Below, piece after piece: positions 1,082 to 63,312 of a stretch of 64,000 nt of DNA. The position numbers were made by a program, and so were the translations under genes. The stretch covers positions 91,947 through 155,946 of the forward strand of contig JBGARZ010000009.1 in the NCBI GenBank assembly GCA_044229975.1, in the 5' to 3' direction. A model generated the notes under the pieces. It made no database searches. It saw nothing but the letters and a program-made list of their open reading frames with translations, and was not told the DNA's origin. This stretch comes from Polyangiales bacterium. Its GTDB lineage: Bacteria > Myxococcota_A > Polyangia > Polyangiales > Ga0077539. The stretch's first letter is position 1, and the number at the start of each line of letters is the position of its first letter.

Positions 1082-1945
1082 TCAGGCTCGCGCGATGTCG
1101 CCCGCCTCGCGACGGTTCTTCCAGGCTTGCGCGGCGTCGATGCCGAGCGCCTCGAAGCGCGGGACGATCACCTCGGTCACCGTCTTGTAGAAGAGCGAGC
1201 GGGCGTCTTCGCCTTCGCACATCCCGACGGCCTCGCGCTGCGCCCGCAGCTCCGACGGGATGGCGGGCGGCGTGAGCGGGAGCAGGTCGACCTCGCGGCG
1301 TTCGAGGTAGGCGAAGGCCACGCGGAGGTAGCGCTCCATGCGCGCGACGGCGCCCGCTTCGAGGCGCGGGAGGTTGTGCGTGAGGTAGAGCCAGCCGAGG
1401 CGGGCGTGGGCGACCTCGTCGGGGAGAATGCGGTCGAGCGTGGCGCGCACGAAGGGCTCGTCGGCGAGCTCGCGCTCCTCGGCGATGAGGGCGACGGCGA
1501 CGGTCTCCGAGAGGCAGCCGACGAAGGTGACGTTGCGCACGGCGCGCTCCAGCGCAGAGAGACCCTCGTGTTCGGGCATGCGCACGAGCGTGGGTTCGGC
1601 AGTCGCAGAGGCGTCGCCGCCGAAGGCGCGCACCACGTCGCCGCAGAGGGTCGCGTGGTAGATCTCGTCCGTCGCGGCGCGGAGGGCCACGGTCTGCACG
1701 TCGATGGTGGAGCTCGCCTCGATGAGCTGCGGAACCAACGACGCAAACACCGCCGCCGACCGGTGCTCGTTGACCATGCGGTCGCGCCAGGTGTGCACCG
1801 CGGCCTCGCGCACGGTGTCGTCGTAGCGCTCGCGGAGCACGTCACCCGCTGGGAGCTCGACGGGGCCCTTCTCCAGACCGCGGACGATGCGCGCGTGGTC
1901 GGCGCGGAAGGGCGAGGCGGAGACGTCCATGGTGAGCGTTCGCAT
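1082..1945 (-). CDS. Ferritin-like domain protein (hypothetical)
   Basis: 287-aa coherent ORF with paired EExxH-like helices (LIAEERELADEPF, LPDEVAHARLGW). Its start overlaps the stop of the upstream lipoprotein gene, which suggests an operon. Confidence 0.55.
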   Translation of the reverse strand: MRTLTMDVSASPFRADHARIVRGLEKGPVELPAGDVLRERYDDTVREAAVHTWRDRMVNEHRSAAVFASLVPQLIEASSTIDVQTVALRAATDEIYHATLCGDVVRAFGGDASATAEPTLVRMPEHEGLSALERAVRNVTFVGCLSETVAVALIAEERELADEPFVRATLDRILPDEVAHARLGWLYLTHNLPRLEAGAVARMERYLRVAFAYLERREVDLLPLTPPAIPSELRAQREAVGMCEGEDARSLFYKTVTEVIVPRFEALGIDAAQAWKNRREAGDIARA

Positions 1946-1948
1946 GGC

Positions 1949-2368
1949 TCAGGCGGCCTCGCCGTGCATCGACGGCGGCATGAACGGCCCCCACGCCTGA
2001 CACCCACGCCGCCAGTCCCAGTTGATGCGCTCGCAGCACTCCGACCACGACAGCGCGGCGTCGCCCTCGTTGCTGCACACCTCGCCGAGGTCCCCGGCCA
2101 CCTCGCTCGCGTCGACCATATCGACCGCGTCGACGGGGGCGCCGGCGTCGACGGCGAGGGCGACGTCCACGGCGGCGGGCGTATCGGCGGTGGCGACGGG
2201 GGTGTCGACGGCGGGTGCGACGTCGGCGGCGACGACACTGCCGTCGACGGTGGAGGCGCAGCCGGCGAGGACGGCGGTCATGGTGAGGGTGACGGCGCGG
2301 GCGGCGCGGAGGGCGCGCTCCTGGGCGCGACGGACTCGCTCAACGGACTCGGGGGCGGTGCTGCGCAT
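1949..2368 (-). CDS. Small lipoprotein (hypothetical)
   Basis: Internal ATG at 2368 gives MRSTAPE...LTMTAVLAGCAS, a signal peptide with lipobox L-A-G-C. Mature part is Ala/Val/Asp-rich and ends in a Cys/Trp-rich module. The upstream part of the track ORF (1949..2602) is judged non-coding. Confidence 0.5.
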   Translation of the reverse strand: MRSTAPESVERVRRAQERALRAARAVTLTMTAVLAGCASTVDGSVVAADVAPAVDTPVATADTPAAVDVALAVDAGAPVDAVDMVDASEVAGDLGEVCSNEGDAALSWSECCERINWDWRRGCQAWGPFMPPSMHGEAA

Positions 2369-2510
2369 GGCGGTGGGTCTCCGGCGGACGAGAGGGAAGA
2401 TCGGTCGGCTCGAAGACCATGATGAGCGTGTGGCGGAGCGTTGAGAATCGGTATGTCGTGTATGCGATTGTATCGAATCGGTTGATGGTGAGGCGACTGC
2501 GACAGGAGAC

Positions 2511-2634
2511 GGGCCGCAAGGGCGCAAGGGTCGCAAGGTCTGAAATGAAAGAGGGAATGGGCTTGGACACGCTTCGCCGAAGCCCAACCAATCATCATTC
2601 ACTTCTGACCCCTGCGCCCCTTGCGCCCTTGCGG
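2511..2634. repeat. Long imperfect hairpin; 18-bp arms GGCCGCAAGGGCGCAAGG (2511-2528) and CCTTGCGCCCTTGCGGCC (2617-2634)
   Basis: Exact reverse-complement arms separated by an AT-richer loop of about 88 nt. The same 27-nt motif family recurs at 39893-39988. Confidence 0.7.
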
Positions 2635-2683
2635 CCGTCGTCTCTCCGCGGCCGTCGTCTCTCCGCGGCCGTCGTCTCTCCGC
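2633..2683. repeat. 17-bp perfect tandem repeat x3 (GGCCGTCGTCTCTCCGC)
   Basis: Three contiguous identical copies at 2633-2649, 2650-2666 and 2667-2683, directly abutting the right arm of the hairpin above. Intergenic. Confidence 0.9.
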
Positions 2684-2695
2684 GGCTGGCGGGTG

Positions 2696-3451
2696 TCAGC
2701 GGATGGCGCGGCGGATGACGGCGGGGTCCCAGCGGTCGGCGGCGATGTCGTCGAGGGCCTCGCGCAGCGGGAGGTCGGCGCTCGCGGCGGCGGCGACGCG
2801 CACGCGGGTGCGGCCGTCGTCACCGCCCGCGGCGAGGGCGATGGCGGCGGCGACGCGCAGCTCGGGGGTGGCGTCGCGGGCGGTGACGGCGCGTTCGAGG
2901 TCGGTGAGGTCGACGGCGGCGTCGCGGTAGGCGGACGACCCGACGGCCAGCGCGCGGAGGGCGTCGCGCCACTCGGTGACGTCGCGGTTGCGGCGCTGGA
3001 GGGCGGCCAGCGCGGTGCTCGGCGCGTCGGGCGGATGGGCGATCTCGGCGCGCAGGTCGGCGACGAGGCGGCGGTCGCGCGCGGGCTCGGGGCTGCTCAC
3101 GCGGAGGGTGACCTGCTCGCCGGAGTGGAGCGTGAGGGCGATGTCGAAGCGCACCTGCTTCACCGCGCGAACGAATCGCCACGGGATGAAGCGCGGCCGA
3201 CGACCCGAGAGGATGGTGAGCCCGTCGTGGCCGAGCAGCAGCTCCACGGGAGCAAACGCGCGCATCGACTGGAGCAGGATGAGCGCCGACGCGAGCATGA
3301 TGACGAGCACGACGACCCACGGGGTCTCGCGGAAGAGCAGCAGCGTGAGCGCGACGATGGGGGTGAGCTGGAGGCCGAAGAAGGCCAGCGCGAGGAGGCC
3401 GCGGAGGGGTCCGTGCCAGGGGGTTCCGAGGAGCACGCGGCGGAGGGTCAA
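2696..3451 (-). CDS. Hypothetical membrane protein (2-3 TM helices plus Ala/Arg/Asp-rich soluble domain)
   Basis: The C-terminal ~250 aa of track ORF 2696..4042 is protein-like (GLLALAFFGLQLTPIVALTLLLF...). Upstream of it the ORF is Arg-rich frame noise. Probable TTG/GTG start near 3436-3451. The next gene ends at 3490. Confidence 0.4.
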   Translation of the reverse strand: MTLRRVLLGTPWHGPLRGLLALAFFGLQLTPIVALTLLLFRETPWVVVLVIMLASALILLQSMRAFAPVELLLGHDGLTILSGRRPRFIPWRFVRAVKQVRFDIALTLHSGEQVTLRVSSPEPARDRRLVADLRAEIAHPPDAPSTALAALQRRNRDVTEWRDALRALAVGSSAYRDAAVDLTDLERAVTARDATPELRVAAAIALAAGGDDGRTRVRVAAAASADLPLREALDDIAADRWDPAVIRRAIR

Positions 3452-3489
3452 GGCGTCGGAGCTGGGCGGGTCGGAGGGCGGCACCGGGT

Positions 3490-4482
3490 CTATCGGGTCG
3501 CGGGGCGGAGGGCGGTGGGGACGCCGTAGCGGTGGTCGAGCGCATCGAGCGCGCGGGCCCAGCGGGAGCCGGAGAGCCCGCGGGCGCGGTCGATGCGGAG
3601 CTGCGCCTGGTGCCACGCGACGACGTGACGGAAGGGCGGGCGGGCGACGTGGCGCGCGAGCAGCGAGGCGTGGTGGAGGGCGTCGAAGGCGCGCTGGTCG
3701 GCGCGTGTCCAGGGGAGCTCGAAGGCGTCGCGCCAGCGCGGTGGGAGCAAGCCCGCGGTGACCACGCGCTCGAAGGGCGTGTGGGAGAGCGGCGTGTCGA
3801 GGAGGGCGCGAGCGACGGTGCGCGCGTGGCGGCCGACGTAGAGATCGGGGTCGTCGAGGGCAGCATCGAACCACGCGTCGAAGGCGGCGCGGTCGACGGG
3901 CCAGCGATCGGGACGAACGCCCGACAGCGCGGAGCTGAGGACGAAGTCGTCGTAGTCGCGCTTGGACTCGGCGGAGGTGAGCGGTCGGACGAAGATCTCG
4001 AAGGCGGCGGTGGAGCCGACGCGCACGGTGGCGGCGACCCAACGCAGGAGGTGCTGGTCGTTGGCGCGGTAGGGGCGACCGTGGAGGGGGCTCTCGGGGG
4101 CGTCGATGGTTCCGCGCACGCGGCAGTGGATGTGGTGCAGGCGGCGGGCGGCGGCGAGGGCCTGGGAGGTGGTTCCGAAGATGAACTCGTAGAGGGTGGC
4201 GGAGGTACGGCGCGCGCGGCCGGCGAGGTCTTCGATGAAGTTGCTGTGCTCAGCGACACCCGTCGCGATGGCGGGATGCGCCATCTGGAGGAGCACCGCC
4301 GCGAAGCCACCCGCGAGGAGCGCGGGCTCGCGGACCTTCACCCACGCGAGGCTGCCGGGCCCGAAGACCCCTTCGACCTCGCTGGCACCGTGGGCGCGCA
4401 CGTAGTCCATGCAGTACGCGAAGTCCTCGGCGTCGAGCGCGTCTTCGGCGGAGCGTGGGTCCACGGCAGCGCGAGCGTACAT
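3490..4482 (-). CDS. DUF2236 / MpaB-like (ER-bound oxygenase family) protein
   Basis: 330 aa from the ATG at 4482 (MYARAAVDPRS...). Conserved DUF2236 features are present (FGPGSLAWV, LLAGGFAAVLLQMAHPAIATGV, RLHHIH). The track ORF is extended 5' by frame noise. Confidence 0.7.
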   Translation of the reverse strand: MYARAAVDPRSAEDALDAEDFAYCMDYVRAHGASEVEGVFGPGSLAWVKVREPALLAGGFAAVLLQMAHPAIATGVAEHSNFIEDLAGRARRTSATLYEFIFGTTSQALAAARRLHHIHCRVRGTIDAPESPLHGRPYRANDQHLLRWVAATVRVGSTAAFEIFVRPLTSAESKRDYDDFVLSSALSGVRPDRWPVDRAAFDAWFDAALDDPDLYVGRHARTVARALLDTPLSHTPFERVVTAGLLPPRWRDAFELPWTRADQRAFDALHHASLLARHVARPPFRHVVAWHQAQLRIDRARGLSGSRWARALDALDHRYGVPTALRPATR

Positions 4483-4584
4483 CGCCCGGCGCGGGAGCGT
4501 CCTCCCGGACGATGACCGCAGCGCGCAGGCCACCGTCCCGCTCGCGCCCGGCGCCGCGACGCGGTAGAGCCCTCTGCGCAACCG

Positions 4585-5469
4585 ATGACCGACACCGACC
4601 CCGCCGAGCGCCTCGCCCGATGGAGCCTCGCCACGGGCGTCGCGGTGCTGCTCCTCAAGGGCTTCGCGTGGCGCCTCACCGGCTCGGTGGCGCTGCTCTC
4701 CGACGCGCTGGAGTCCATCGTCAACGTGGTGGCCTCGCTCGCGATGTTCGTCGCGCTGCGCGTGGCCCGCCTCCCGGCCGATCGCAACCACCCCTACGGC
4801 CACGGCAAGGCGGAGTACCTCTCGGCCGTGCTCGAAGGCGTGCTCATCGCCGTCGCCGCCGTGATGAGCCTCCTCGTCGCGTCGGGACGGCTGCTGCACC
4901 CGCGAGCGCTCGTGGACGTCGGCGCGGGCCTCGGCGTGTCCGTCGCCGCCAGCGCGCTCAATGGTCTGCTCGCGTGGCGGCTCATCGTCGCCGGCAAGAA
5001 GCACCGCTCGCCTGCCCTCGCGGCCGACGGGCAGCACATCCTCTCCGACGTGGTCACCACGGCGGGCGTGCTCGTGGGCGTCGGGCTCGCGCGGCTCACC
5101 GGCTGGTGGCGGCTCGACCCGATCCTCGCGTGCGTGGTCGCGGTGAACATTCTCTGGATGGGGTGGAAGCTCGTTCGCCGCTCGGTGGGTGCGCTGATGG
5201 ACGAGGTGCTCGACGAGGACGAGGTCGCCCACGTGCGCGCCGTCGCCGAGCGCGTCGCCCGCGAGGGCGGGGCCGTCGGCGTGAAGGGCTTCCGACTCCG
5301 GCGCACGGGGGCGTCGGGCCAGTGCGACATGACCCTGGTGGTGCCCGGCGAGATGACCGTGCGGGCAGCCCACACGATCTGCGACCGCATCGAGGACGCG
5401 CTGCACACCGATGAGCCTGCGCTCGGGGTGGTGGTGCACGTCGAGCCTGAGCCCGGCAGCGGGGCATAG
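4585..5469 (+). CDS. Cation diffusion facilitator family transporter (CzcD/FieF-like)
   Basis: 294 aa with 6 TM helices, SDALESIVNV, the HPYGHGKAEY motif and a C-terminal cytoplasmic metal-binding domain (HVEPE). Confidence 0.9.
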   Translation: MTDTDPAERLARWSLATGVAVLLLKGFAWRLTGSVALLSDALESIVNVVASLAMFVALRVARLPADRNHPYGHGKAEYLSAVLEGVLIAVAAVMSLLVASGRLLHPRALVDVGAGLGVSVAASALNGLLAWRLIVAGKKHRSPALAADGQHILSDVVTTAGVLVGVGLARLTGWWRLDPILACVVAVNILWMGWKLVRRSVGALMDEVLDEDEVAHVRAVAERVAREGGAVGVKGFRLRRTGASGQCDMTLVVPGEMTVRAAHTICDRIEDALHTDEPALGVVVHVEPEPGSGA

Positions 5470-5491
5470 TCGCTCGCGGCGGCACGCCTCT

Positions 5492-6034
5492 TCAGGACCG
5501 CAGCGCGAGTCTCATGTGCACGCGCGTCGACCAGTCGAGGCCCTCGGCCGTCTGGTCGCGCTCGATGGCCCGCAGTCCCTCGCCGCACTGATCGCGCGGA
5601 ACCACCACGAAGCCGTGACGCGCGTACCACGGGGCGTTCCACGGGACGTCGACCTGCGTGTTGAGCACGATGGACGCCTCACCGTCGCCGCGCGCCCGCT
5701 CGATGACGGCGCGTAGCAACGCGTCGCCCACGCCGCGTCGCCCATGCGCGATGGCCACGCTGATCTGCCCGAGGCACGGCTCTCCGTCGACGCGGCCGAC
5801 GTAGGCCCAGCCCGCGAGCTCGCCGCCCACCTCGGCGACGGTGACGCAGCCCTTCGCGATGAGCCGGCGCGCCACGTCGAGCGGGATGCCATCGCCGTCC
5901 GCGAGCTCGGGGTGCCCCACCGCGGCGAAGCGGGTGTCGGCGTCGAGCGCCACGCGAACGATCTCCGCGATGTCTTCGTCGCGCGCGAGGCGCAGCGTGA
6001 GGGAGAGACGCTGTGGGTCGGGGCGTTGGTCCAT
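5492..6034 (-). CDS. GNAT family N-acetyltransferase
   Basis: 180 aa from the ATG at 6034. Acetyl-CoA binding motif QISVAIAHGRRGVGDALL; C-terminal YARHGF. Confidence 0.8.
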   Translation of the reverse strand: MDQRPDPQRLSLTLRLARDEDIAEIVRVALDADTRFAAVGHPELADGDGIPLDVARRLIAKGCVTVAEVGGELAGWAYVGRVDGEPCLGQISVAIAHGRRGVGDALLRAVIERARGDGEASIVLNTQVDVPWNAPWYARHGFVVVPRDQCGEGLRAIERDQTAEGLDWSTRVHMRLALRS

Positions 6035-6050
6035 GGTCGGGTGCTGTGTC

Positions 6051-6377
6051 CTACGCCTCGGCGATGCCCCGCTCGCGGCGCGCCTTGAGGCAGTCGTCGG
6101 ACCCTGCCTCCACCCGTCGGCACGGCGCCGGGCGCAGCGCGTAGATCTCGCAGCGCACCTTGCGCCCGAGCTTGCCCGAGAGCGCGGTGCACCGCTGGCC
6201 CGCGTCGAGCTTGAGGTGCGCCTTCCCCTCGGCGTCGCGCGTGACGTACCGCTGAACGAGCTTCTGGTGTCGCCAGAGGCCCTCGCGCTCGGACACGTCG
6301 ACATAGGCGACGTAGCCTTCGGCGCGGTTCTCGTCGGGGTTGGTGCAGCATGCGCCGCAGCGGGTGCAATCGAGCAT
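6051..6377 (-). CDS. YkgJ-family cysteine-cluster (zinc/iron-chelating, CxxCxxCC) protein
   Basis: 108 aa MLDCTRCGACCTNPDE...LSGKLGRKVRCEIYALRPAPCR. Typical of the UPF0153/YkgJ family. Confidence 0.75.
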   Translation of the reverse strand: MLDCTRCGACCTNPDENRAEGYVAYVDVSEREGLWRHQKLVQRYVTRDAEGKAHLKLDAGQRCTALSGKLGRKVRCEIYALRPAPCRRVEAGSDDCLKARRERGIAEA

Positions 6378-6494
6378 CGATCGCGAACCATAATCCCAAA
6401 CGCAGCGCTTCTCGCGGGGTCGTACGTCCCACCGGTTGGGACTTCGCGACGACCGATGACGATTTCCGGTCACGAAACACACCCCCACCCGAAC

Positions 6495-7067
6495 ATGCGA
6501 GACGACCCGATGGGAGCCGAAGCAGCAGTGGTCTGGGACACCGATCCGATTGGTCAGGCGCTCGCGGCCGGCGACCCTCGCACCGCCATCGCCCTCTGCG
6601 CGCGCCGACACGGCGCGTCCATCGGGCGCCTGTGCATGGGCTGGCTGGGCTCTCAGACCGAAGCCGAAGAGGCCGTGCAGGAGACCCTCCTCGCGGCCTT
6701 CGACGGCGCGGCCAACTATCGTGCGGAGGGCAGCATCACCGCGTGGCTGTACGGCATCGCGCGGCGGGTGTGCGCCCGTCGCGTCGAGGTGCGCGGCCGA
6801 CGAGAGCGCCAGCTCCGGCTGGTGGGCCCGGAGGTCGACCACGCCGACGGGGCCGACGTGCTGCTCGCCGCCCGACGCCGCGGGGAGCGGGTGCGCGTGG
6901 CGCTGGAGCAGCTCAAGCCGTCGGAGCGCGATGCGGTGGTGCTGCGCTACGAGGGGGAGCTGTCGTTTCGTGAGGTAGGGGAGAGCTGTGGCATCGACGA
7001 GGCCACCGCGCGCAAGCGGGTGAGCCGCGCCCTGGAGAAGCTGCGGTCGACGCTCGTCGACGAGTGA
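6495..7067 (+). CDS. ECF (sigma-70 family, group IV) RNA polymerase sigma factor
   Basis: 190 aa with region 2 (EEAVQETLLAAF...ITAWLYGIARRV) and a region 4 HTH (LKPSERDAVVLRYEGELSFREVGESCGIDEATARKRVSRALEKLR). Directly followed by the anti-sigma gene. Confidence 0.85.
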   Translation: MRDDPMGAEAAVVWDTDPIGQALAAGDPRTAIALCARRHGASIGRLCMGWLGSQTEAEEAVQETLLAAFDGAANYRAEGSITAWLYGIARRVCARRVEVRGRRERQLRLVGPEVDHADGADVLLAARRRGERVRVALEQLKPSERDAVVLRYEGELSFREVGESCGIDEATARKRVSRALEKLRSTLVDE

Positions 7068-7076
7068 GGACATCCA

Positions 7077-10000
7077 ATGATCAACCGATATGACTGCGCG
7101 CGGGTTCAAGAAGAGCTCGCGGCGCTGGCCGATGACGCCATCCCGGAAGAGGCCGCCGCGCACCTGGCCGGGTGCGACGACTGCCGCGACCTGCTCCACG
7201 ACGCGCGCATCGCCGCCCAGACGCTGCGAGGCGGAGCGGGCGCGGACTTCGTCGCGATGGACGGCGACGCGCTCGCCGCGAAGGTGCTCAGTGCCATCGA
7301 CGGGCGGATGTCGAAGGCGACGCCCGTGCACGGGACGCCGATGGCGGTGACCGTCGCGCAGACCTCACCCCCCAGCCCTCTCTCCCTGGCAGGAGAGGGG
7401 GAGCCGAAGGGAGAGGCACCTCTTCCCGTCGCTGTTCCTACGGCCGTTGCCTCTGCCTCTGGCTCCCCCTCTCCTGCCAGGGAGAGGGGGTTGGGGGGTG
7501 AGGTCTCGCCCCCAAAGGCGAGAGGTGAGGTCGCCCGTCGACGCATCGGCGCGTCCATCTGGGGCGCGGGGTTGTTCGCGGCGGCGGCGTCCGTGGCGGT
7601 CGTGGTGGTCGCGATGCGCGGCCCGTCGACGACACCCGCCAACGCGCCCGATGGCTCCTCGCCCGAGACGCCGCGCGGCCCCGTCGGGCCGTGGCACGCG
7701 ACGCTCGGCCGGGCGCTCGGCGCGGGCGTCGAGGTGAAGGCCGCGGGCGCGTCGGACTTCGCCGCGCTGCGTGAGCGCGGGGTCATCGGGCAGGGAGCGA
7801 CGGTACGCACCGACGCCCGCACCCGCGCCCGCATCGACCTCGACGACGGCACCGTGCTCGTCCTCGATCGCGCGACCACGCTGGTGCTCGACCCGAGCGC
7901 GCCACGCCACGCCCGCATCGTCGAGGGAACCCTCGTCGCCGACGTCGCCCACCGCGACGACGCCCCGCCCGCGGTGCTCACCACGGCGCAGGGAGACGTG
8001 CGGGTGCTCGGGACGAAGTTCGCCGTGAGCGCGTCCAACGATCACACCACCGTGCAGGTCACCCGCGGCGTGGTGCGGCTCGGCCAGGCGTCGAGCGACG
8101 GCGTCGAGGTGAAGACCGGCCAGGAGGCCGTGCTCGCCCGCGGTCAGGTGAGCGTGTCGCCGGCCGTCAACCTGGGCGGTCGCGTGGCGTGGTCGGAGCT
8201 CAACGCCCCCGACGACACCACCACCAGCTCCGGCCTCGGTGAGCTGCGCGCGCGCCGCCCCGGCAGCACCGCCGAACGCGATCAGGCCGTGCACCTCGCC
8301 GAGCATCAGGTGCGCGTTCGCATCGTCGGCAACGTGGCGCGCACCGAGATCGAGGAGGTGTTTCGCAACGACACGGGCAGCGAACTCGAAGGGCTCTACC
8401 GCTTTCCGCTGCCGCCCGAGGCGCAGGTGGAAGAGCTCGCCCTCGACGTCGACGGTCGCATGGAACCCGGCGCCTTCGTCGACCGCGACCGCGCGGCGGC
8501 CATCTGGCGCGGGGTCATCCACCACGCGGCGCCCAACACGCCGCCGCCGAGGGAGGAGTACGTCTGGGTGCCTGGTCCGTGGCGTGATCCGGCGCTGCTG
8601 GAGTGGCAGCGGGGTGGGCGCTTCGAGCTGCGGGTGTTTCCCATCCCGGCACGCGGCGCGCGGCGCGTGCGCATCGCGTACACGCAGACCATCGCGCCAT
8701 CGGGCGGCGGACTGCGGCGCTACGTCTACCCGCTGCCCCACGACCCGGGGGGGAGCACCCGCGTCGATCACATGAGCATGGACGTGCAGGTGCTCGGCCA
8801 CAGCGGGACGCAGCCCGCCCGCGTGCTGGGCTACCCCTTCGCGGCCGCCGACACCTCCGCCGCGGCCTCGCGGTGGACCTTCGCGCGCGACAACTTCACC
8901 CCGTCGGGCGACGTGGTGATGGAGTACGCGCTCGGCGACGCGACCGTGCCGGTGACGGCCTGGGGCTACGCCGAGCCGACCAACACCGAAGGGGCGTACG
9001 TGGCCCTCGCGCTGCGACCGCAGCTCCCGCGCTGGGGCGAGGCGAGGCCGCGGGACTACGTCTTCGTGGTCGACGCGAGCCGCTCCATGGTGGGCGAGCG
9101 CTACGCCCGCGCGACCCGTCTGCTCAGCTCCATCGTCTCGGAGATGGACCGCCGCGATCGGCTCACGGTGCTCGCCTGCGACGTTCGGTGCGTGGCGATG
9201 CGGGAGGGGATGGTCCCGGCGAGCGCGGAGGTGTCGCGGCAGGTGAGCGGGTGGTTGCAGGCGCGCGAGCCCGCCGGCGGGAGCGACCTCGGCGCGGCGG
9301 TGCGGGCGGCGGCGAGCGCGACGCGTTCGACCCCGGACGACCGCGACGTGCGCGTGGTGTACCTGGGCGACGGCGCGTCGACGGTGGGCCACCGGCGCCC
9401 GACGACGCTGGCGCTGGAGGTGACGACGGCGCTGCCCGCGCGCAAGGCGACGTTCACCGCGGTGGCGGTAGGAGCAGAAGCGGACACCACGACGCTCGCG
9501 GCGATGGCGCGGGCGGGTGGTGGGGTGGTGGTTCCGTACCTGCCGGGCGAGGCGAGGACGGGGGCGGCGCTCTCGGTGCTCGAAGCGACGTATGGGGCGG
9601 TGCTGCGCGACCCGGAGGTGACGCTGCCGTCGGGGCTGGTGTCCATGGCGCCAGCGCGACCCGACAACCTGCGCGCGGGCTCCGAGGCCGTCATCACGGC
9701 GCGGATGCTCCCCGGCGTGCGCGAGGTCGAGGGCGAGGTGGTGCTCCGCGGAACGGTCGCCGGCGAAGCCTTCGAGGCGCGCTACCCGATCACGGTGCGG
9801 GCGACGGAGGACGCGGGGAATGCGTTTGTTCCGCGGCTGTTTGGCGCGGCGCGCATCGCTGATCTCGAAGCGGGCGGCGAGCCCGGCGCGCGGGCCGAGA
9901 TGGTGGCGCTGTCGCAGCGGTTTCACCTGGCGAGCCGGTACACGTCGCTGCTGGTGCTGGAGAGCCCGGCGATGTTTCGCGCCTTCGGGGTGGAGCGCAC

Positions 10001-11450
10001 GGCGGGCGGCGTGACGTGGACGGGCGAGACCGAGGCGCTCGCGACGGGCGCCACGGCGACCACGGCCGATGCGAGCGGCGAGGAGGAGCAGCGCACGGCC
10101 GCGGAGGACAACGCATCGACCGAGGCGCTCGGCGGCCTGGCGGCGGCGCACGGCCGCGGAGGCGCGGCGAGCGAACGAGCGTCGACGGAGCCGGAGCCCG
10201 ACATGGTCGAAGCGCCCCGTCGGGAGAACAGCGCGGGGTACGGCCATGTCCAGCAGGTGCCGGCGACGACGACGACGATGCCGCGGCCCGCGCCGGTGGT
10301 CGCGGCGGCGCCGGCCGCGCCTGCGGCGATCTCACAGGCCAACAGCGGGATGCTCGACAACGACGACCTCCAGCGGAGAGGTCCGGCGGCGGCGGCGACC
10401 CGGATGCGTCGCGACGTGGCGGTCGATCGACCGTGGGCGGGAGGCGGTCGCTGGATGCGACGGACGTGGGTGCGTCACGCGGCGGTGAGCGCGCCGGTCG
10501 TGTCGGCGGAGTCGCTGCGGACGCGCATCGAGGCGGCGCGGCGCGCGCTCGGGGAGAACCCCAACAGCCGCGATCGTCACCGGGAGTTGTTCCGGTGGCT
10601 GTCGCTGGCGGGCGAGCTCGACGAGGCGGCGCGGGTGGCCGAGGCGTGGATCGCGCGCGACCCGCTGGACGCCGACGCGCTGATGCGGCTGTCGGACGTG
10701 GCGGCGCGGCGGGGCGATCGTCTGCGGGCGATGCGCTGGCTGGGCGGCGTGGCGGACGTTCGGCAGGACGACGCGCTGCTGCTCGACCGGCTGGCGATGA
10801 TGCACGCGCGGGCCGGGGACGCCGAGACGGCGTGCGCGTACCGGGTGGCGTCGGCGGAGTCGCGGAGCAGCGACGCGACGAAGGTGGCCGAGGCGGTGCG
10901 GTGCGAGCGGGCGCTGGGGCGCGAGATGTTCGCGGGGCGGATGCTCGATCTGTTGACGGACGCGGCGCAGCGATCGCGGGCGGAGTCGCTGGCGATGGGC
11001 AGCGGGGCGGACGTGTTCGCGAGCGTGCGCGGCGAGCTGCTGGCGCAGGCGACGTGGGACGTGGGGGTCGACCTCGACGTGGTGTTCATTGATCCGAACG
11101 GGGTGCGCGTGTCGTGGCAGGGCGGCCGCGCGGGGACGACGGTCAACGAGCCGATGGGCAACGGGCGCGAGTCGCTGGCGCTGGGTCGGCTGGCGACGGG
11201 CGACTGGCGGGTGGAGGTGGTGCGCACCGACCGCGAGGTGACGGGCGCGCAGGACGAGGACGACGCGACGCCGCGGACGGTGGTGCGCGGGAGCGTGACG
11301 CTGACGGCGCTGGGCGAGCGGCGGGTGCTGCCGTTTACGCTGACGGGGACGCGCGCACCGGTGGGCCGCGTGGTGGTGACGCGGGAGGAGCAGCTGGTGC
11401 CAGCGGGTCCGCCGCCGCCGGGCGCGCAGTTGGAGATGAGGCGCTGGTAG
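7077..11450 (+). CDS. Giant anti-sigma factor: zf-HC2, TM, FecR, VIT, vWA and TPR-like C-terminal region
   Basis: 1457 aa. N-terminus has the zf-HC2 motif (C..HLAGCDDC). A TM helix (IGASIWGAGLFAAAASVAVVVVAM) follows. Then a FecR domain (GATVRTDARTRARIDLDDGTVLVLDRAT), a VIT domain (VRIVGNVARTEIEEVFRNDTGSELEGLYRFPLP), a vWA domain (DYVFVVDASRSMVG...VVYLGDGASTVG), and helical repeats plus a beta-rich tail. Confidence 0.8.
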   Translation: MINRYDCARVQEELAALADDAIPEEAAAHLAGCDDCRDLLHDARIAAQTLRGGAGADFVAMDGDALAAKVLSAIDGRMSKATPVHGTPMAVTVAQTSPPSPLSLAGEGEPKGEAPLPVAVPTAVASASGSPSPARERGLGGEVSPPKARGEVARRRIGASIWGAGLFAAAASVAVVVVAMRGPSTTPANAPDGSSPETPRGPVGPWHATLGRALGAGVEVKAAGASDFAALRERGVIGQGATVRTDARTRARIDLDDGTVLVLDRATTLVLDPSAPRHARIVEGTLVADVAHRDDAPPAVLTTAQGDVRVLGTKFAVSASNDHTTVQVTRGVVRLGQASSDGVEVKTGQEAVLARGQVSVSPAVNLGGRVAWSELNAPDDTTTSSGLGELRARRPGSTAERDQAVHLAEHQVRVRIVGNVARTEIEEVFRNDTGSELEGLYRFPLPPEAQVEELALDVDGRMEPGAFVDRDRAAAIWRGVIHHAAPNTPPPREEYVWVPGPWRDPALLEWQRGGRFELRVFPIPARGARRVRIAYTQTIAPSGGGLRRYVYPLPHDPGGSTRVDHMSMDVQVLGHSGTQPARVLGYPFAAADTSAAASRWTFARDNFTPSGDVVMEYALGDATVPVTAWGYAEPTNTEGAYVALALRPQLPRWGEARPRDYVFVVDASRSMVGERYARATRLLSSIVSEMDRRDRLTVLACDVRCVAMREGMVPASAEVSRQVSGWLQAREPAGGSDLGAAVRAAASATRSTPDDRDVRVVYLGDGASTVGHRRPTTLALEVTTALPARKATFTAVAVGAEADTTTLAAMARAGGGVVVPYLPGEARTGAALSVLEATYGAVLRDPEVTLPSGLVSMAPARPDNLRAGSEAVITARMLPGVREVEGEVVLRGTVAGEAFEARYPITVRATEDAGNAFVPRLFGAARIADLEAGGEPGARAEMVALSQRFHLASRYTSLLVLESPAMFRAFGVERTAGGVTWTGETEALATGATATTADASGEEEQRTAAEDNASTEALGGLAAAHGRGGAASERASTEPEPDMVEAPRRENSAGYGHVQQVPATTTTMPRPAPVVAAAPAAPAAISQANSGMLDNDDLQRRGPAAAATRMRRDVAVDRPWAGGGRWMRRTWVRHAAVSAPVVSAESLRTRIEAARRALGENPNSRDRHRELFRWLSLAGELDEAARVAEAWIARDPLDADALMRLSDVAARRGDRLRAMRWLGGVADVRQDDALLLDRLAMMHARAGDAETACAYRVASAESRSSDATKVAEAVRCERALGREMFAGRMLDLLTDAAQRSRAESLAMGSGADVFASVRGELLAQATWDVGVDLDVVFIDPNGVRVSWQGGRAGTTVNEPMGNGRESLALGRLATGDWRVEVVRTDREVTGAQDEDDATPRTVVRGSVTLTALGERRVLPFTLTGTRAPVGRVVVTREEQLVPAGPPPPGAQLEMRRW
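7361..7506. repeat. MITE-like element with ~41-bp near-perfect terminal inverted repeats, inserted inside the anti-sigma CDS
   Basis: Left arm gacctcaccccccagccctctctccctggcaggagaggggg (7361-7401). Right arm ccccctctcctgccagggagagggggttggggggtgaggtc (7466-7506) is its reverse complement with about 3 mismatches. The ORF reads through it as a Pro/Ser/Gly/Glu-rich linker. Confidence 0.75.
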
Positions 11451-20468: not shown

Positions 20469-21416
20469 ATGAGCAAGAAGATCATCGCGGTGACCGGCGC
20501 CACGGGCGCGCAGGGCGGCGGCCTCGCCCGCGCCATTCTCGACGACGCCTCCGGGGAGTTCACGCTGCGCGCCATCACGCGCAAGCCCGACAGCGACAAG
20601 GCTCGCGCGCTCGCCGACCGCGGCGCCGAGGTGGTGGCCGCCGACCTCGACGACCAGGCCAGCCTGGAGAGGGCCTTCGCGGGCGCGTATGGGGCGTTCT
20701 GCGTGACCAACTTCTGGGAGCACTTCTCGGGCGAGAAGGAGACCGCGCAGGCCCGCTCGCTCGCGGCGGCGGCGAAGGCCGCGAAGGTCTCGCACGTGAT
20801 CTGGTCGACCTTCGAGGACACGCGCGACCTGGTGCCCCTCTCCGACGACCGGATGCCGACGCTCCACGGGAAGTACAAGGTCCCGCACTTCGACTCGAAG
20901 GGAGAGGCGAACAGCGCCTTCACCGGGTCGGGCGTGCCCACGACGCTGCTGCTCACGTCGTTCTATTGGGACAACCTGATCCACTTCGGGATGGGGCCGA
21001 AGAAGGGCGCCGACGGAAAGCTGTCGTTCGTGCTGCCGATGGCCGACAAGAAGCTCCCGGGCATCGCCGCGGGCGACATCGGCGGCTGCGCCTACGGCGT
21101 CTTCAAGCGGGGCACCGAGTTCCAGGGGAAGACCGTCGGCGTGGCGGGCGAGCACCTCACCGGCGACCAGATGGCGGCGGCGCTCTCGCAGGCGCTGGAG
21201 CAGCCCGTCTCCTACGCGTACGTCCCGCCGGAGGTGTACCGCACGTTCGGGTTCCCGGGCGCCGACGACCTGGGCAACATGTTCCAGTACAAGCGTGACT
21301 TCGAGACGCAGTACTGCGGCGCCCGCGACGTCGCCCTCTGCCGCTCGCTCAACCCGGGCCTCCAGACCTTCGCGCAGTGGCTCTCGCGCCACAAGGCGCA
21401 GATCACGGTCGGCTGA
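20469..21416 (+). CDS. NmrA-family NAD(P)-binding protein
   Basis: Start MSKKIIAVTGATGAQGGG (Rossmann GxxGxxG) with GAGGGAGA upstream. NmrA/HSCARG-like fold throughout. Confidence 0.8.
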   Translation: MSKKIIAVTGATGAQGGGLARAILDDASGEFTLRAITRKPDSDKARALADRGAEVVAADLDDQASLERAFAGAYGAFCVTNFWEHFSGEKETAQARSLAAAAKAAKVSHVIWSTFEDTRDLVPLSDDRMPTLHGKYKVPHFDSKGEANSAFTGSGVPTTLLLTSFYWDNLIHFGMGPKKGADGKLSFVLPMADKKLPGIAAGDIGGCAYGVFKRGTEFQGKTVGVAGEHLTGDQMAAALSQALEQPVSYAYVPPEVYRTFGFPGADDLGNMFQYKRDFETQYCGARDVALCRSLNPGLQTFAQWLSRHKAQITVG

Positions 21417-21460
21417 CAGAGAGCCCTCTCATTCAAGCGGGCGGTGATGTTGTCCGCCCG

Positions 21461-21707
21461 GACGCCGGAGTTCGCGTGCCCCCATGAGGCGGGGTGCAGT
21501 CGCTCACTCCGGGCTATTTCAGGTCGTCACCCCGCGACGCGGGGTTGCAGAGAATCCGCTCGTCTTCACGCCTGTGATGGGTTTGTTGAGTGAGTGGCCG
21601 CGGACACGACCCTGACCCTGCAACCCCGCGTCGCGGGGTGACGACCTGAAATAGCCCGGAGTGAGCGACTGCACCCCGCCTCATGGGGGCACGCGAACTC
21701 CGGCGTC
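21461..21707. repeat. 247-bp near-perfect palindrome (about 90-bp arms, about 67-bp loop); family copy 1
   Basis: Arms 21461-21550 and 21618-21707 are exact reverse complements (gacgccggagttcgcgtgcccccatgaggcggggtgcagtcgctcactccgggctatttcaggtcgtcaccccgcgacgcggggttgcag). Lies between the convergent genes ending at 21416 (+) and 21736 (-). Confidence 0.9.
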
Positions 21708-21735
21708 CACCGGACGAGATCACCAACCACTCAAA

Positions 21736-38099: not shown

Positions 38100-39356
38100 T
38101 CAGCGTCCCGTCGCCCCCCGCTCACGCACCTCGGGCACCCGCGGCCACCACAGCCACGCCAGCGTCCCCGGAATCACCCACGCCGCGAGCACCAGCAGCA
38201 CCTCGCGGTACCCGCTGTGGGCCTCCACCCCGCGCCCGATCAGTGGGTTCGCCACCGTGAACGCCAGCGCCTGCGCCGACGCGCACCAACCGCCCGCCGT
38301 CGACACACCCCGCGCCGGAATGCGCGCCAGCATGTCCGAGGTGATCATCGCGTAGGTCCCGCCGCCGCCGAACATCGCCACGCCCGCGAAGCCCATCGCC
38401 ATCCACGCCGACGTGGCCGTCGTCATCGCCGCCGTCCCGCCCGCCGCCAGCGCGCCGCTCAACACGATGAGCCCAGGGTGCGTCCCGCCGCGCACGTTGC
38501 TCGCGTGACGCGCGAGCCGCGCCGACACATCACCAAACACCACGCTCCCCAGGTCGAACATCAGCGGCGGCAGCCAGATGAACGCCGCCACCCCCTTCTG
38601 CGTCACCCCCCACGTCCGCACCAGGTACTTCGCGCTCCACGTGAGCACGAGCCCGATGGCGGGCGACGACGCCACGATGAGCGCCAGCGTCCGCACCACC
38701 GCGGGCGACCGCCACGCGCTCCACCGCTCCGTGACCTCGCCCTCGGCCACCGTCTCGGGTGCCGCGTCGAGCACCTCGCGCCCCGGCGAGCGCCACGCCA
38801 CGCCCATCCACAACGGAACCCACACGAGCCCCGCCAGCGCCGACACCAGCAGCGCCCCGCGCCACCCGAACGCCCCCATCAGCCCCACCGCGATGGGCGG
38901 CGCGATCATCGACCCGATGGAGCTTCCGGTGAACAGCACCCCGACCCCTCGCGGCCGCTCGGACGGCGGCAGCGCGCGGTGCACCGTCTGCGACGCCCCC
39001 GGAAACGACGGCGACTCCGCGAAGCCCAGCAGCACGCGAAACACCACCAGCGCTCCGAAGCCCGGCGCCAGCGCGTGGAGGGCCGACGCGACGGTCCACA
39101 CCAGCACCGCCGCCAGCAGTCCGCGGCGGGCGCCGACGCGGTCGATCCACCGTCCCGCGAAGGGCGCGCCGATCAGGTACGCCAGCGAGAACGTCGACAT
39201 CATCAGCCCGTACCGCGTCTCCGAGATGTGCAGCTCGCGGGTGATGGTGGGCGCCAGCACCGCCAGCGCCTGCCGGTCGACGTAGCTGATGGTCATGGTG
39301 AAGGTCGCCGCCAGCACCAGCATCCACGACTGTCCGCGGGTCAGCGTCGACGTCAT
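38100..39356 (-). CDS. MFS transporter
   Basis: About 418 aa from the ATG at 39356 (MTSTLTRGQSWMLVLAATFT...). 12 TM helices; MFS motif GRWIDRVGARRG. Confidence 0.85.
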   Translation of the reverse strand: MTSTLTRGQSWMLVLAATFTMTISYVDRQALAVLAPTITRELHISETRYGLMMSTFSLAYLIGAPFAGRWIDRVGARRGLLAAVLVWTVASALHALAPGFGALVVFRVLLGFAESPSFPGASQTVHRALPPSERPRGVGVLFTGSSIGSMIAPPIAVGLMGAFGWRGALLVSALAGLVWVPLWMGVAWRSPGREVLDAAPETVAEGEVTERWSAWRSPAVVRTLALIVASSPAIGLVLTWSAKYLVRTWGVTQKGVAAFIWLPPLMFDLGSVVFGDVSARLARHASNVRGGTHPGLIVLSGALAAGGTAAMTTATSAWMAMGFAGVAMFGGGGTYAMITSDMLARIPARGVSTAGGWCASAQALAFTVANPLIGRGVEAHSGYREVLLVLAAWVIPGTLAWLWWPRVPEVRERGATGR

Positions 39357-39838
39357 CGGGGCTGCGTCCGCTCGAAGTCGGCGAGGGTCATCCGCTCGAC
39401 GCGACCCTTGAGCGCCGACGCCGGGATGAGATCGCCCGCGAGGTAGCGCCACCCCACGCCGTCGTGCGCGAAGTACGAACGCTCCACGAAAGACCGGTCG
39501 CTCTTCCCTTCTTGAATGCGCGCGTAGAAGAGCACCTCGGCGAGGCCGTCGCTCCCTGTGGGACGACGGTCGAGCACCCGCAGACCCTGGTAGCGGTACA
39601 CCCGAAACGTCTGCTTCAACGACCGCCGCACCGCCTCGACCCCACCCTCCAGGTCGGCGTGATCGGCGTGCATCGTTCGCAACAGGTACGAGTCGTCACC
39701 GCGCGCGAAGGCCACGTAGCGCGAGCGCATCAGCGCCTCGGCGTCGGGCGCCTCGCGCTCACCCCGGTGGTACGGACCGCAGCAGCTCTCGTAGTCCCGC
39801 CCGGTGTCGCACGCGCACCGCCTGTCGTCGGTTGGCAC
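39353..39838 (-). CDS. YchJ family protein (UPF0225) with SEC-C metal-binding motif
   Basis: 161 aa. N-terminal CACDTGRDYESCCGPYH and C-terminal nuclear-transport-factor-2-like domain. Confidence 0.7.
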   Translation of the reverse strand: MPTDDRRCACDTGRDYESCCGPYHRGEREAPDAEALMRSRYVAFARGDDSYLLRTMHADHADLEGGVEAVRRSLKQTFRVYRYQGLRVLDRRPTGSDGLAEVLFYARIQEGKSDRSFVERSYFAHDGVGWRYLAGDLIPASALKGRVERMTLADFERTQPR

Positions 39839-39892
39839 CGTCGGAGTCCTCTCGGCTAGTACTGCTTCGCCAGCGTTCTGACGGGTTGGAGA

Positions 39893-39988
39893 GGCCGCAA
39901 GGGCGCCAGGGTCGCAAGGGAGGAACGAACAGCGCGACTCATCAACACCTCATCTCATCTTGTCCTTGCGACCCTGGCGTCCTTGCGG
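39893..39988. repeat. Hairpin of the same motif family as 2511-2634 (arms ccgcaagggcgccagggtcgcaagg / ccttgcgaccctggcgtccttgcgg, about 38-nt AT-rich loop)
   Basis: About 25-bp arms, 24/25 complementary. Shares the CGCAAGGGCGC[AC]AGGGTCGCAAGG core with 2511-2538. Confidence 0.7.
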
Positions 39989-39991
39989 CTT

Positions 39992-41074
39992 TCAACCGTT
40001 CAGAACTCTTGCGATGCGACCCCAGGCGGGCTTCATCGCCGCGTCGACGCGCGCGCGCAGTTCGCCCTGTCGGTCGATCACGCTCTTCGCCAACGACCAC
40101 TGCCCGCGCGCTCGCACCAGGTTGTGCCCGCCGCGCGTCGCGTGACGTGACGGGTCCCATCCGAAGTAGCGCTCGTTGAGGGCGTCCGCCGCGAAGCGCG
40201 CCGCGAGCTCCGTGCAGATCGTCGCCAGTCCGTCGACGAGGGCATCCGTCTCCTCGGGCGTCACGAGCTCGCCCGCCGTGCTCGCGTAGCCCGCTACCGC
40301 CCGGCCCAGGCGCTCGGCGTCGACCGCGCAGTCCGTCGCGTCCTCGCCCGACGGGTTGCACCACGAGCGCAGCGCATCACCCAGCTCGAAGGGCAGCACC
40401 ATCCGGCCGACGGTGTCGAGGTCGACGAGGCACACCCCGCGCAGATGCTCGTCGAAGAGCAGGTTGGAGAGCTTCAGGTCACCGTGCGCATGACGCAACG
40501 GAAGCGCCCCGAAGGTCGGCAGCGCCGCACCCGCGCGCTCGATGTCATCGGCCAGGGGCGCGACCTGCTCATAGAGCGCGTGGGCGCGACCGTCGTCGAC
40601 GGCCTGCGCGAGCGTCGCGAGGTGCGCGCGGGTGTCGTGAACGCCCGGCCGCGTGAAGCGGTACGCGTGGTCGAGGTCGCCGAGCGCGCGGTGAAACGAA
40701 CCCACCAGCGCGCCGGCCGCGAAGACGTGATCGGCGCTCACCGGTCGGTCGAAGGTCTGCGCGTCGGGGACGAAGGTCTGCGCGCGCCAGATCTCGGTGC
40801 GCTCACTCGTCGGGCGTTCGACCCAGAGGGCGCCATCGCGCGTCGGGAGGAGCCGCGGCGTCACCATCGCCTTCGCCGCGAGGTGCGCGGTGACGGCCTC
40901 GATGTCGTGGTGCACCGCCGCGCCAAACACCGGGTGCAGTCGCTGGAGCACACACCGCCGACCGTCCGCTTCGAGCAGGAACGTATCGTTGATGAGCCCC
41001 CGCCCATACGGTTTCGCGGCGGCGCCCTCGAAGCCCTCGAAGCGCGCGAGCACCTCCGGGGGAGGTGAGGTCAC
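39992..41074 (-). CDS. Phosphotransferase enzyme family protein (APH/choline-kinase-like)
   Basis: 360 aa. Brenner motif HGDLKLSNLLFDE and VDLDTVG (DxD) typical of the APH fold. Confidence 0.75.
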   Translation of the reverse strand: MTSPPPEVLARFEGFEGAAAKPYGRGLINDTFLLEADGRRCVLQRLHPVFGAAVHHDIEAVTAHLAAKAMVTPRLLPTRDGALWVERPTSERTEIWRAQTFVPDAQTFDRPVSADHVFAAGALVGSFHRALGDLDHAYRFTRPGVHDTRAHLATLAQAVDDGRAHALYEQVAPLADDIERAGAALPTFGALPLRHAHGDLKLSNLLFDEHLRGVCLVDLDTVGRMVLPFELGDALRSWCNPSGEDATDCAVDAERLGRAVAGYASTAGELVTPEETDALVDGLATICTELAARFAADALNERYFGWDPSRHATRGGHNLVRARGQWSLAKSVIDRQGELRARVDAAMKPAWGRIARVLNG

Positions 41075-43439: not shown

Positions 43440-43450
43440 CCCCGCCCGAG

Positions 43451-43710
43451 GCCGCTGCGCCCGCGGGCCGGAGTTCGCGTGACCCCATTGCGGGTGCGTG
43501 CAGTCGCTCACGCCGGGCTATTTCACGGGGTCACCTCGCTGCGCGAGGTTGCAGGAACTCTCGATCGGCGATGGACGAGGCGACGGGTTGCTCGTTGAGA
43601 CCAGAGCTGCAACCTCGCGCAGCGAGGTGACCCCGTGAAACAGCCCGGCGTGAGCGACTGCACGCACCCGCAATGGGGTCACGCGAACTCCGGCCCGCGG
43701 GCGCAGCGGC
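43451..43710. repeat. 260-bp near-perfect palindrome; family copy 2 (same family as 21461-21707)
   Basis: Arms share the blocks ccggagttcgcgtg, tgcagtcgctcac and ccgggctatttca with copy 1. The inner stem differs (cacctcgctgcgcgaggttgcag versus caccccgcgacgcggggttgcag), but each copy remains self-complementary. Lies between the convergent genes ending at 43439 (+) and 43716 (-). Confidence 0.9.
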
Positions 43711-43715
43711 CCTCC

Positions 43716-44591: not shown

Positions 44592-44671
44592 GGCCGTCGG
44601 GTCTTCTACCGTATGCCGCAACATTTAGCGCCCTTGCCGGTGCTGCGGCGTGAGCGTATGTCGCCCGCACC

Positions 44672-63168: not shown

Positions 63169-63171
63169 CCC

Positions 63172-63312
63172 TGGGGAGGGGGGTGGGTTGACCGTGGGGG
63201 CGGGGGTGGGTTGAGGCTGGGGAGGGCAGAGGGTCGAGGGTGGGGACGGGGGTGGGTTGAGGGTGGGGACGGGGGTGGGTTGACCGTGGGGAGGGTAGAG
63301 GGTTGAGGGTGG
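63172..63312 (+). repeat. G-rich ~23-bp tandem repeat array, about 6 copies (consensus cgggggtgggttgasggtgggga)
   Basis: Six successive units with G-tracts of 3-5 on the plus strand, immediately after the DedA-like stop. C-rich on the minus strand. Confidence 0.85.

Follow-up and report, generated by a model that had tools for sequence, protein, structure and literature searches.

What are the two long hairpins that lie between same-strand genes in this stretch of a Polyangiales genome, and how did they come to be there? The window considered here, i.e. the whole stretch that was analysed, comprises 64,000 nucleotides (nt) of contig JBGARZ010000009.1 (assembly GCA_044229975.1, positions 91,947 to 155,946 of the forward strand) with a guanine-plus-cytosine (GC) content of 71%. 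An initial annotation of its sequence had singled out two hairpins with a shared core as a possible terminator or attenuator, or else as an intercistronic element resembling repetitive extragenic palindromic (REP) sequences. We come to the conclusion, with a probability of roughly 0.65, that each of the two hairpins is a miniature copy, without a gene and non-autonomous, of a mobile palindromic element that has relatives with a cassette encoding a GxxExxY protein. Two unexplained hairpins thereby become members of a defined repeat family that crosses phyla.

The core CGCAAGGGCGCMAGGGTCGCAAGG (24 nt, up to three mismatches allowed) matches the window at exactly four positions, which are both arms of both hairpins, and it has no match in 100 dinucleotide-preserving shuffles of the window, which bears out the claim that the two loci share a core. 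Looser matches of two heptamers at 18543, 34925 and 38025 are chance occurrences within GC-rich coding sequence. By an inverted-repeat scan, hairpin 1 has arms of 27 nt at 2512-2538 and 2610-2636 (93% complementary, spacer of 71 nt), and hairpin 2 has arms of 26 nt at 39894-39919 and 39964-39989 (96% complementary, spacer of 44 nt). The hairpins described initially thus exist, but their dimensions need correction: 18-bp arms and a loop of ~88 nt do not apply to hairpin 1, and ~25-bp arms with a loop of ~38 nt were slightly off for hairpin 2. The arms of both hairpins are made up of three tandem units of 8-9 nt, CCGCAAGG, GCGCMAGG and GTCGCAAGG, i.e. heptamers of the CGCAAGG type, and the inverted repeats of the element are (A/G)(A/G)C-(CGCAAGG)x3 ... 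(CCTTGCG)x3-G(T/C)(T/C). The two copies are composed as follows.

2489..2695: copy 1, whole inserted palindrome of ~205 nt, ends accurate to about ±5 nt, from empty-site alignment (relatives L116, L115 and L118) and folding
2512..2538, plus strand: left core arm of copy 1, GGCCGCAAGGGCGCAAGGGTCGCAAGG, three tandem heptamer units
2539..2609: spacer of copy 1, AT-richer than the arms, partly self-complementary (inner stem), with a small apical hairpin
2610..2636, plus strand: right core arm of copy 1, CCCTGCGCCCCTTGCGCCCTTGCGGCC, complementing the left arm with 2 mismatches
2631..2686: 17-nt tandem repeat GCGGCCGTCGTCTCTCC of copy 1, 3.3 copies, 100% identical, a local triplication of the outer arm
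39858..40024: copy 2, whole inserted palindrome of ~167 nt, from empty-site alignment (relatives L108 and L114) and folding
39894..39919, plus strand: left core arm of copy 2, GCCGCAAGGGCGCCAGGGTCGCAAGG
39920..39963: spacer of copy 2, with CTCATCTCATC at its 3' end
39964..39989, plus strand: right core arm of copy 2, CCTTGCGACCCTGGCGTCCTTGCGGC

At both loci the predicted pairing runs inward and outward past the core, resulting in hairpins of ~165-205 nt with minimum free energies (MFE) of -126 to -129 kcal/mol at locus 1 (2480-2700) and of -93 to -99 kcal/mol at locus 2 (39860-40030), and the fold z-scores of the two loci range from -6.9 to -9.9. The outer stem at locus 2 reaches ~30 nt into coding sequence, and among the 17-nt repeat units of copy 1 only one pairs with the left outer arm GGAGACGGGCC. 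Judged by their asymmetric outer ends, the copies lie in opposite orientations. When they are compared with each other, they are alike only in the 27-nt arms, while spacers and outer stems differ. At the Rfam gathering threshold, the window gives two tRNAs only, and four loci of the family give no match.

Gene placement, which is based on a codon-usage gene call and on Pfam, puts both hairpins between genes of the minus strand, 3' of the stop of one gene and upstream of the next gene in the same direction, just as the initial annotation had it. The genes at the two loci are these.

1949..2368, minus strand: downstream gene of locus 1, hypothetical protein, start at 2368
2696..3484, minus strand: upstream gene of locus 1, hypothetical protein without Pfam hit, stop TGA at 2696-2698
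39353..39838, minus strand: downstream gene of locus 2, YchJ-like protein (PF17775), start at 39838; an MFS transporter gene is next
39992..41074, minus strand: upstream gene of locus 2, APH-family phosphotransferase (PF01636), stop at 39992-39994
39992..40027, minus strand: C-terminal tail of the APH protein, ending in PAWGRIARVLNG (last ~11 codons and stop), encoded by the outer arm of the element

Are the hairpins old constituents of these loci or newcomers? Both window copies are recent insertions that are absent from close relatives, and not locally evolved terminators. At locus 2, the contig of the closest APH homologue (P0001, 92% identity, contig L108) has an empty site with the YchJ-like start 12 nt past the APH stop, and the site is likewise empty next to an APH homologue of 82% identity (L114); gap-tolerant alignment to the relatives places an insert of 167 nt at 39858-40024. 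At locus 1, the insert of ~205 nt is absent from L115 and L116 (upstream protein 93% identical) and from L118 (78%), with flanks that align base for base, and the leader/promoter region 2369-2488 of the downstream gene is conserved in the element-free relatives. Copy 1 begins directly after the upstream TGA stop, the APH stop at locus 2 is only 2 nt away from the core arm, and a GCTGA at the stop codon is common to both target sites. Both inserts are palindromic nearly from end to end, without any open reading frame (ORF) inside. Copy 2 rewrote the C-terminus of the upstream protein: nine orthologues were compared with the APH protein of the window, and it exceeds every one of them in length by ~10 residues; protein and DNA alignments assign the extra codons to the outer arm of the element. 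That two recent insertions are alike only in their arms implies several active source lineages, with propagation depending on the arms.

How far does this element reach beyond the window? Its core family is a multicopy, strictly intergenic palindromic element. The core search retrieved at least 106 loci from species-representative genomes and 41 loci from metagenomes, and 147 loci were fetched; a metagenome scan with a GG-prefixed core pattern gave no match. The following counts are all among the matches listed. Paired hairpins number 121 in the 147 fetched loci, and their spacers have a median of ~49 nt. The genome loci stem for the most part from Sorangium (seven chromosomes, of which So ce375 and So ce513 have dozens of copies), and further from Polyangiaceae, Byssovorax and other Myxococcota metagenome-assembled genomes (MAGs), from MAGs labelled Acidobacteriota and Thermoanaerobaculales, and from two low-GC MAGs labelled Bacteroidota (L084 and L089). 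Next to the copies in low-GC Bacteroidota, and likewise next to the arm clusters, there are ordinary genes (fn3, TPR/SpoIIE, rhomboid, PLP decarboxylase). The reverse complement of the right arm of copy 2 agrees in 25 of 25 bases with an arm in L089, a contig of an AT-rich Cyclobacteriaceae MAG, and an independent assembly (L107, Logan contig SRR28480386_622460) contains the right arm of locus 2 and part of its spacer exactly. Conservation extends to the flanks of the core, ...GAGAAAC|CGCAAGG... and ...CCTTGCG|GTTTCTC..., where ~8 bp more pair in register outside the core. Of the genome copies, 75 could be classified, and not one of them is located within a gene; 31 are found between convergent, 34 between tandem and 10 between divergent genes, and in 30 of the 34 tandem settings the hairpin is closer to the upstream stop than to the downstream start. 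Where a gene 3' end faces a hairpin, the outermost predicted stem overlaps it or comes within 20 nt of it in about half of the cases. No description of the repeat was found in the searchable literature, including work on REPs and miniature transposable elements with inverted repeats (MITEs) of Sorangium and other myxobacteria.

With this distribution at hand, it can be asked what remains of the functional labels given initially. A “REP-like intercistronic element” is a fair functional description, as the element is multicopy, has 0 of 75 copies in genes and is biased to gene 3' ends, and the core, which would have looked like a low-complexity coincidence if common in coding sequence, turned out not to be common there. 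The terminator or attenuator is unsupported, given that there is no U tract and no terminator-like score, that the insertions are recent, and that neither strand nor orientation is biased. Terminator and promoter scans found nothing terminator-like or promoter-like at the two window loci, and neither stem is followed by a run of T. At locus 2, the genes are 12 nt apart in the relative and presumably co-transcribed, and the downstream ORFs and ribosome-binding site are intact despite the splitting of this junction by copy 2, which argues against efficient termination; the copy 2 hairpin cannot be an efficient terminator unless the downstream genes are now silent. In the 34 tandem contexts, the sense strand gives the better fold 11 times and the antisense strand 23 times (p = 0.22), i.e. 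there is no sense advantage, and the Sorangium copies show no orientation bias relative to transcription (10 same, 7 opposite). Neither the sense and antisense MFE nor the orientations in Sorangium give a sign of selection at the RNA level.

What kind of element could have generated such copies? Full-length members of the family with the same arms enclose a GxxExxY gene. Among the matches listed, six elements have a spacer of 400-700 nt between the arms, and five of them contain this gene.

L120: GxxExxY gene, intact ORF
L131: GxxExxY gene, intact ORF
L138: GxxExxY gene, intact ORF
L148: GxxExxY gene, frameshifted ORF
L160 (Sorangium So ce375): GxxExxY gene, intact ORF

The ORFs of the elements score 132-140 bits with TIGR04256 (cut-off 35) and 130-141 bits with PF13366 (PDDEXK_3; cut-off 22, E ~1e-38), and the product of ~125 aa has a PD-(D/E)XK nuclease fold. 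A sequence search for this nuclease among solved structures gave no match. Its AlphaFold2 model (mean pLDDT 88) has the BpuSI nuclease domain and lambda-exonuclease-like proteins among its closest structures. The family is large, with 17,356 clusters at 50% identity (E up to 0.001), and a survey of PD-(D/E)XK proteins lists the function of GxxExxY/PDDEXK_3 as unknown (PMC3424549). No paper on an association of GxxExxY, PF13366 or TIGR04256 with heptamer arms was found in the searchable literature.

Similar arrangements recur with variations. In L086 the same arms enclose a GxxExxY gene. Inverted repeats of the CGCCAAG type, AACCGCCAAGACGCCAAG... and ...CTTGGCGTCTTGGCGGTT, flank a GxxExxY gene in a Deferrisomatales MAG (L163) and in Sorangium So ce134 (L002), and the L163 element takes up precisely the space from one same-strand gene to the next; in L162 hairpins of the CGCAAAG type form an array past the GxxExxY gene. 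The arms even leave their trace in the called protein sequences, as 19 of 22 close GxxExxY homologues begin with the arm-encoded sequence (T/A)AR(A/T)(Q/P)G(S/A)QG, of which the variant ARAPGSQG matches the CGCCAGG arm of the window, and about half of 26 distant representatives that have N-terminal extensions show similar tails (NRQDAKDA, NRQGRQGRQ, AKDAKDAK, NHEGHEG). The short copies also resemble the full-length elements between the arms: the spacer ends are similar to the interior ends of full-length elements, with GACCAGA... past the left arm and ...CATCTC(C)ATCTCTTCC ahead of the right arm, both kinds have the leader motif CGTGAGAC, and the motif CTCATCTCATC of the copy 2 spacer recurs in Sorangium copies and, within the full-length element L160, in the 3' interior.

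In L086 (positions 1333-6630, a Myxococcales MAG) the arms punctuate a defence-like row of genes, in the order of a PglX-like methyltransferase with an arm-encoded C-terminus, an AAA_21/AbiEii-like ATPase between arms, the GxxExxY gene and stacked arms.

The hairpin of Sorangium copies occupies the middle of a homogeneous unit of 241 bp with terminal inverted repeats of ~22 bp (CTAGAACACCGATCACGTTGGA / TTCAACCTGTTCGGCGCTCTAG) and CTAG at both ends. These units (L004, L010, L040, L048 and other loci, e.g. L048:4861-5103) resemble a classical MITE with an IS630- or IS5-like target; they often abut or overlap stop codons, and the unit of L019 fills the entire gap between convergent genes. Some Sorangium spacers contain expansions of the heptamer GATGAGA (L005:5926-6150 with ~30 units, L006:4418-4510), arms of four units are found in L030, L001 and L079, and stacked arms in L058, L084 and L086. 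The slippage expansions in the family members L005, L006, L030 and L058 are like the 17-mer repeat of copy 1, and the GATGAGA expansions, the extra arm units, the stacked arms and the triplication of the 17-mer in the window together mark the hairpins as hot spots of tandem duplication. Several heptamer dialects appear to coexist (CGCAAGG, CGCCAAG, CGCAAAG, CRCAGAT and CACGAAG). In the low-GC Bacteroidota-like contigs L129 and L156 (both GC 0.40) and L089 (3520-3846), a GC-rich arm CGCAAGGACGCCAGGGTCGCAAGG alternates with an A/T-shifted partner CTTTGCGTTACTTTGCGCTCTTTGCG in tandem arrays, in which the mismatches are G-T wobbles on one strand, a hint of strand-specific pairing as single strand or RNA.

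How may the miniature copies have arisen and spread? Short copies would result from internal deletion of GxxExxY cassettes, in the same way as MITEs arise from insertion sequences, and the conserved arms would be the cis-acting part that is needed for propagation. The GxxExxY nuclease, supplied in trans, would promote the spread, probably by acting on a hairpin or cruciform of the arms; of all steps this one is the least secure. Most likely the copies ride along in the host as selfish passengers. Transcribed together with the upstream gene, a copy would form a very stable RNA stem-loop, which could, by analogy with REPs and with intervening sequences of 23S rRNA, serve as RNase III site, as 3' stabiliser or as a partial barrier causing polarity.

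Several observations weigh against this interpretation. The putative binding or cutting of the arms by the GxxExxY nuclease is its weakest step. There is no GxxExxY gene within the 64-kb window, so that a trans-acting partner elsewhere in this genome has to be assumed. The sixth of the long-spacer elements, L044, has a nested hairpin of another heptamer type and no GxxExxY ORF, and in L086 a gene for an AAA_21 ATPase likewise lies between arms. The heptamer type does not track the protein phylogeny, which argues against a tight co-evolution of enzyme and site, so that the ORF may also be cargo: the L131 protein is ~41% identical to the other proteins of the CGCAAGG type, to which the L163 protein of the CGCCAAG type is 66-68% identical, and no co-evolution of heptamer type and nuclease sequence is seen. 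A target-site duplication has only a weak candidate at locus 1 (CTGAC/CTCAC) and none that convinces at locus 2, and no clean terminal motif emerged, at junctions that are blurred because the relatives have diverged by 7-8% at the protein level. Since the loci were retrieved by exact matching with the core, conservation of the core is partly given by construction, but this does not apply to the architecture as a whole and its recurrence. Finally, an ordinary DDE transposase could account for the movement of the 241-bp unit of Sorangium.

As to L044 itself (1241-1750, a MAG labelled Thermoanaerobaculales), its spacer of 470 nt holds a different tandem-heptamer block, CCGCAGATCACACAGATCGACGCAGAT.

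What alternatives exist for miniature copies of a GxxExxY element? The Sorangium unit leads to the idea that the copies are MITEs of the ordinary kind, whose mobility comes from a classical DDE transposase (e.g. IS630/Tc1-like, with a TA or CTAG target), with hairpin and GxxExxY gene as passengers. Its homogeneous length, terminal repeats and CTAG ends, its presence in both orientations and its frequent abutment to stops agree with this, as does the lack of covariation between heptamer type and nuclease. However, the window copies and most copies outside Sorangium have neither the terminal repeats nor the CTAG ends, it is the central arms and not the termini that are conserved across subfamilies and phyla, no examined locus has a transposase ORF beside or between the arms, and there is a resemblance between the outer region of the Sorangium unit and the 5' outer region of L160, a full-length GxxExxY element. 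We therefore regard DDE-driven MITEs as unlikely. A transposase of another kind would be required if the hairpins were pairs of REPs (REPINs) that are propagated by a single-copy REP-associated tyrosine transposase (RAYT, HUH-Y1). Two inverted conserved sequences of ~26 nt around a poorly conserved spacer, many extragenic copies and the absence of a clear target-site duplication, as expected for HUH enzymes, would all fit, and Y1 transposase classes with “atypical” REP-like structures have been described from Acidobacteria, Planctomycetes and Bacteroidetes (PMC6006769). Yet the tandem-heptamer sequence is not contained in the REP tables of that study, the arms have (A/G)(A/G)C on one side and G(T/C)(T/C) on the other, with no GT[AG]G or CnGA foot beside them, and a six-frame scan of ~150 loci (of loci, not of whole genomes) detected no ORF with HUH and Y motifs. 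As moreover the gene between the arms codes for a PD-(D/E)XK protein and not for a Y1 transposase, REPINs have a very slim chance of being the correct identity.

Could the hairpins rather have been selected by the host as terminators, attenuators or mRNA-stabilising stem-loops that serve the flanking genes? In E. coli, REP elements modulate mRNA stability, and also translation when they are near a stop codon, and this precedent, together with the strong 3'-end bias and the very stable predicted stems, speaks for such a role. The 3'-end bias would equally be obtained by purifying selection against insertions into promoters and genes, though, and the other evidence does not agree with host selection: a U tract is missing, the two copies were inserted recently in a lineage-specific way and are absent from close relatives, copy 2 interrupts the 12-nt junction of an apparent operon whose downstream genes are intact, and there is neither a sense-strand folding advantage nor an orientation bias. 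Selection for a host function is accordingly very improbable. Simple tandem heptamers in a genome of 71% GC also raise the question of a chance, low-complexity coincidence or an assembly artefact, but with four window matches versus none expected, with an architecture that recurs at over 120 independent loci, some of them on complete Sorangium chromosomes, and with the exact reproduction of the locus 2 right arm and part of the spacer in the L107 assembly, this can practically be dismissed.

Invertible promoters (invertons) were considered as well and are ruled out by the many spacers of 22-30 nt and by the 3'-end position, and the architecture rules out an identity as CRISPR, retron or attC.

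A more far-reaching and clearly more tentative idea can be formulated. GxxExxY proteins may be the mobility enzymes of an as yet unrecognised class of palindromic elements, which would be characterised by AAC(CRCNNNG)n inverted repeats, insertion at or beside stop codons, hitch-hiking in operons and gene-less derivatives across Myxococcota, Acidobacteriota and Bacteroidota, and the hairpins of the window would be their footprints. Excision would then be a structure-specific, resolvase-like cut of the extruded cruciform. We consider this a possibility that has less in its favour than against it.

What does the element mean for the genomes that contain it? Recent insertions reshape operons, by giving a protein a new C-terminus and by placing a stem of -90 to -130 kcal/mol between presumably co-transcribed genes. 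Gene callers are misled by the arms into annotating N- or C-terminal tails such as TARAQGSQG. For GxxExxY/PDDEXK_3 proteins, a role as the apparent coding core of hairpin-bounded selfish cassettes is the first concrete functional context that our literature search brought up. L107, which is the only other assembly found with the exact APH protein (window 39950-41...), ends inside the hairpin spacer, and many contigs with GxxExxY homologues are only ~1 kb long; both observations suggest that the palindromes break short-read assemblies.

The window has further repeats. Another and much longer palindrome family, presumably the “first hairpin family” of the initial annotation, occurs at 43450-43711 (105-nt arms, 99% complementary) and 21460-21708 (91-nt arms, 100%), just past the 3' ends of the genes 43716-44624 (minus strand) and 20469-21416 (plus strand), and its two members share GGAGTTCGCGTG(A/C)CCCCAT...GCAGTCGCTCAC...GGGCTATTTCA. 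A third palindrome at 7360-7506, with 59-nt arms that are 92% complementary and rich in CCCTCTCC/GGAGAGGG, lies near the 5' end of ORF 7077-11450. Unrelated to the hairpins, apparent coding sequence contains long tandem repeats at 58679-59577 (periods of 156, 312 and 468 nt, ~75% identity) and, at 63162-63314, 6.7 copies of a 23-nt unit.

Which known systems come closest to the palindromic element? Like attC sites of integrons, the hairpins are imperfect inverted repeats of variable length, directly 3' of a gene, that fold as single strands, but there is no GTTRRRY core and no integrase-linked cassette array, and the copies lie 37 kb apart in ordinary operons. With REPs and REPINs they have in common the doublet of inverted ~26-nt sequences with a variable spacer, the extragenic position, the many copies per genome and the weak self-complementarity of each arm (GCGC...GCGC); they differ in the lack of a GTAG-type foot and of a RAYT gene in ~150 loci, in the tandem heptamers of the arms and in the nuclease superfamily of the associated gene. 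A closer parallel to the full-length relatives is found in rRNA. In Coxiella burnetii, the intervening sequence (IVS) of the 23S rRNA gene has an inverted-repeat stem around a small ORF for S23p, and the stem is cut by RNase III (PMC4990558). The full-length elements likewise are cassettes of ~0.4-0.7 kb that carry a small ORF of unknown function in a long stem, and they would also be selfish, horizontally acquired and transcribed within a host transcript. They and the window copies, which would have lost the ORF, lie however in intergenic regions of mRNA, where processing by RNase III is to be presumed, and the ORF family is a different one (GxxExxY nuclease fold versus the four-helix bundle of S23p). 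With respect to MITEs, there are differences in that the gene of the long relatives encodes a PD-(D/E)XK GxxExxY protein and no recognised transposase, so that its part in transposition is putative, that the best-conserved part is the internal tandem-heptamer block and not the extreme termini, that no target-site duplication is clear, and that the core recurs across phyla. In most other aspects the element is like the MITEs Correia/NEMIS, ERIC and RUP: these, too, are short (here ~170-240 bp), non-coding, multicopy sequences with inverted repeats that fold into long hairpins, they are intergenic, often next to stop codons, and can extend or alter neighbouring ORFs, they are present or absent among close relatives, with two copies in 64 kb here and dozens in single chromosomes of Sorangium, and they have longer relatives with the same arms that carry a gene.

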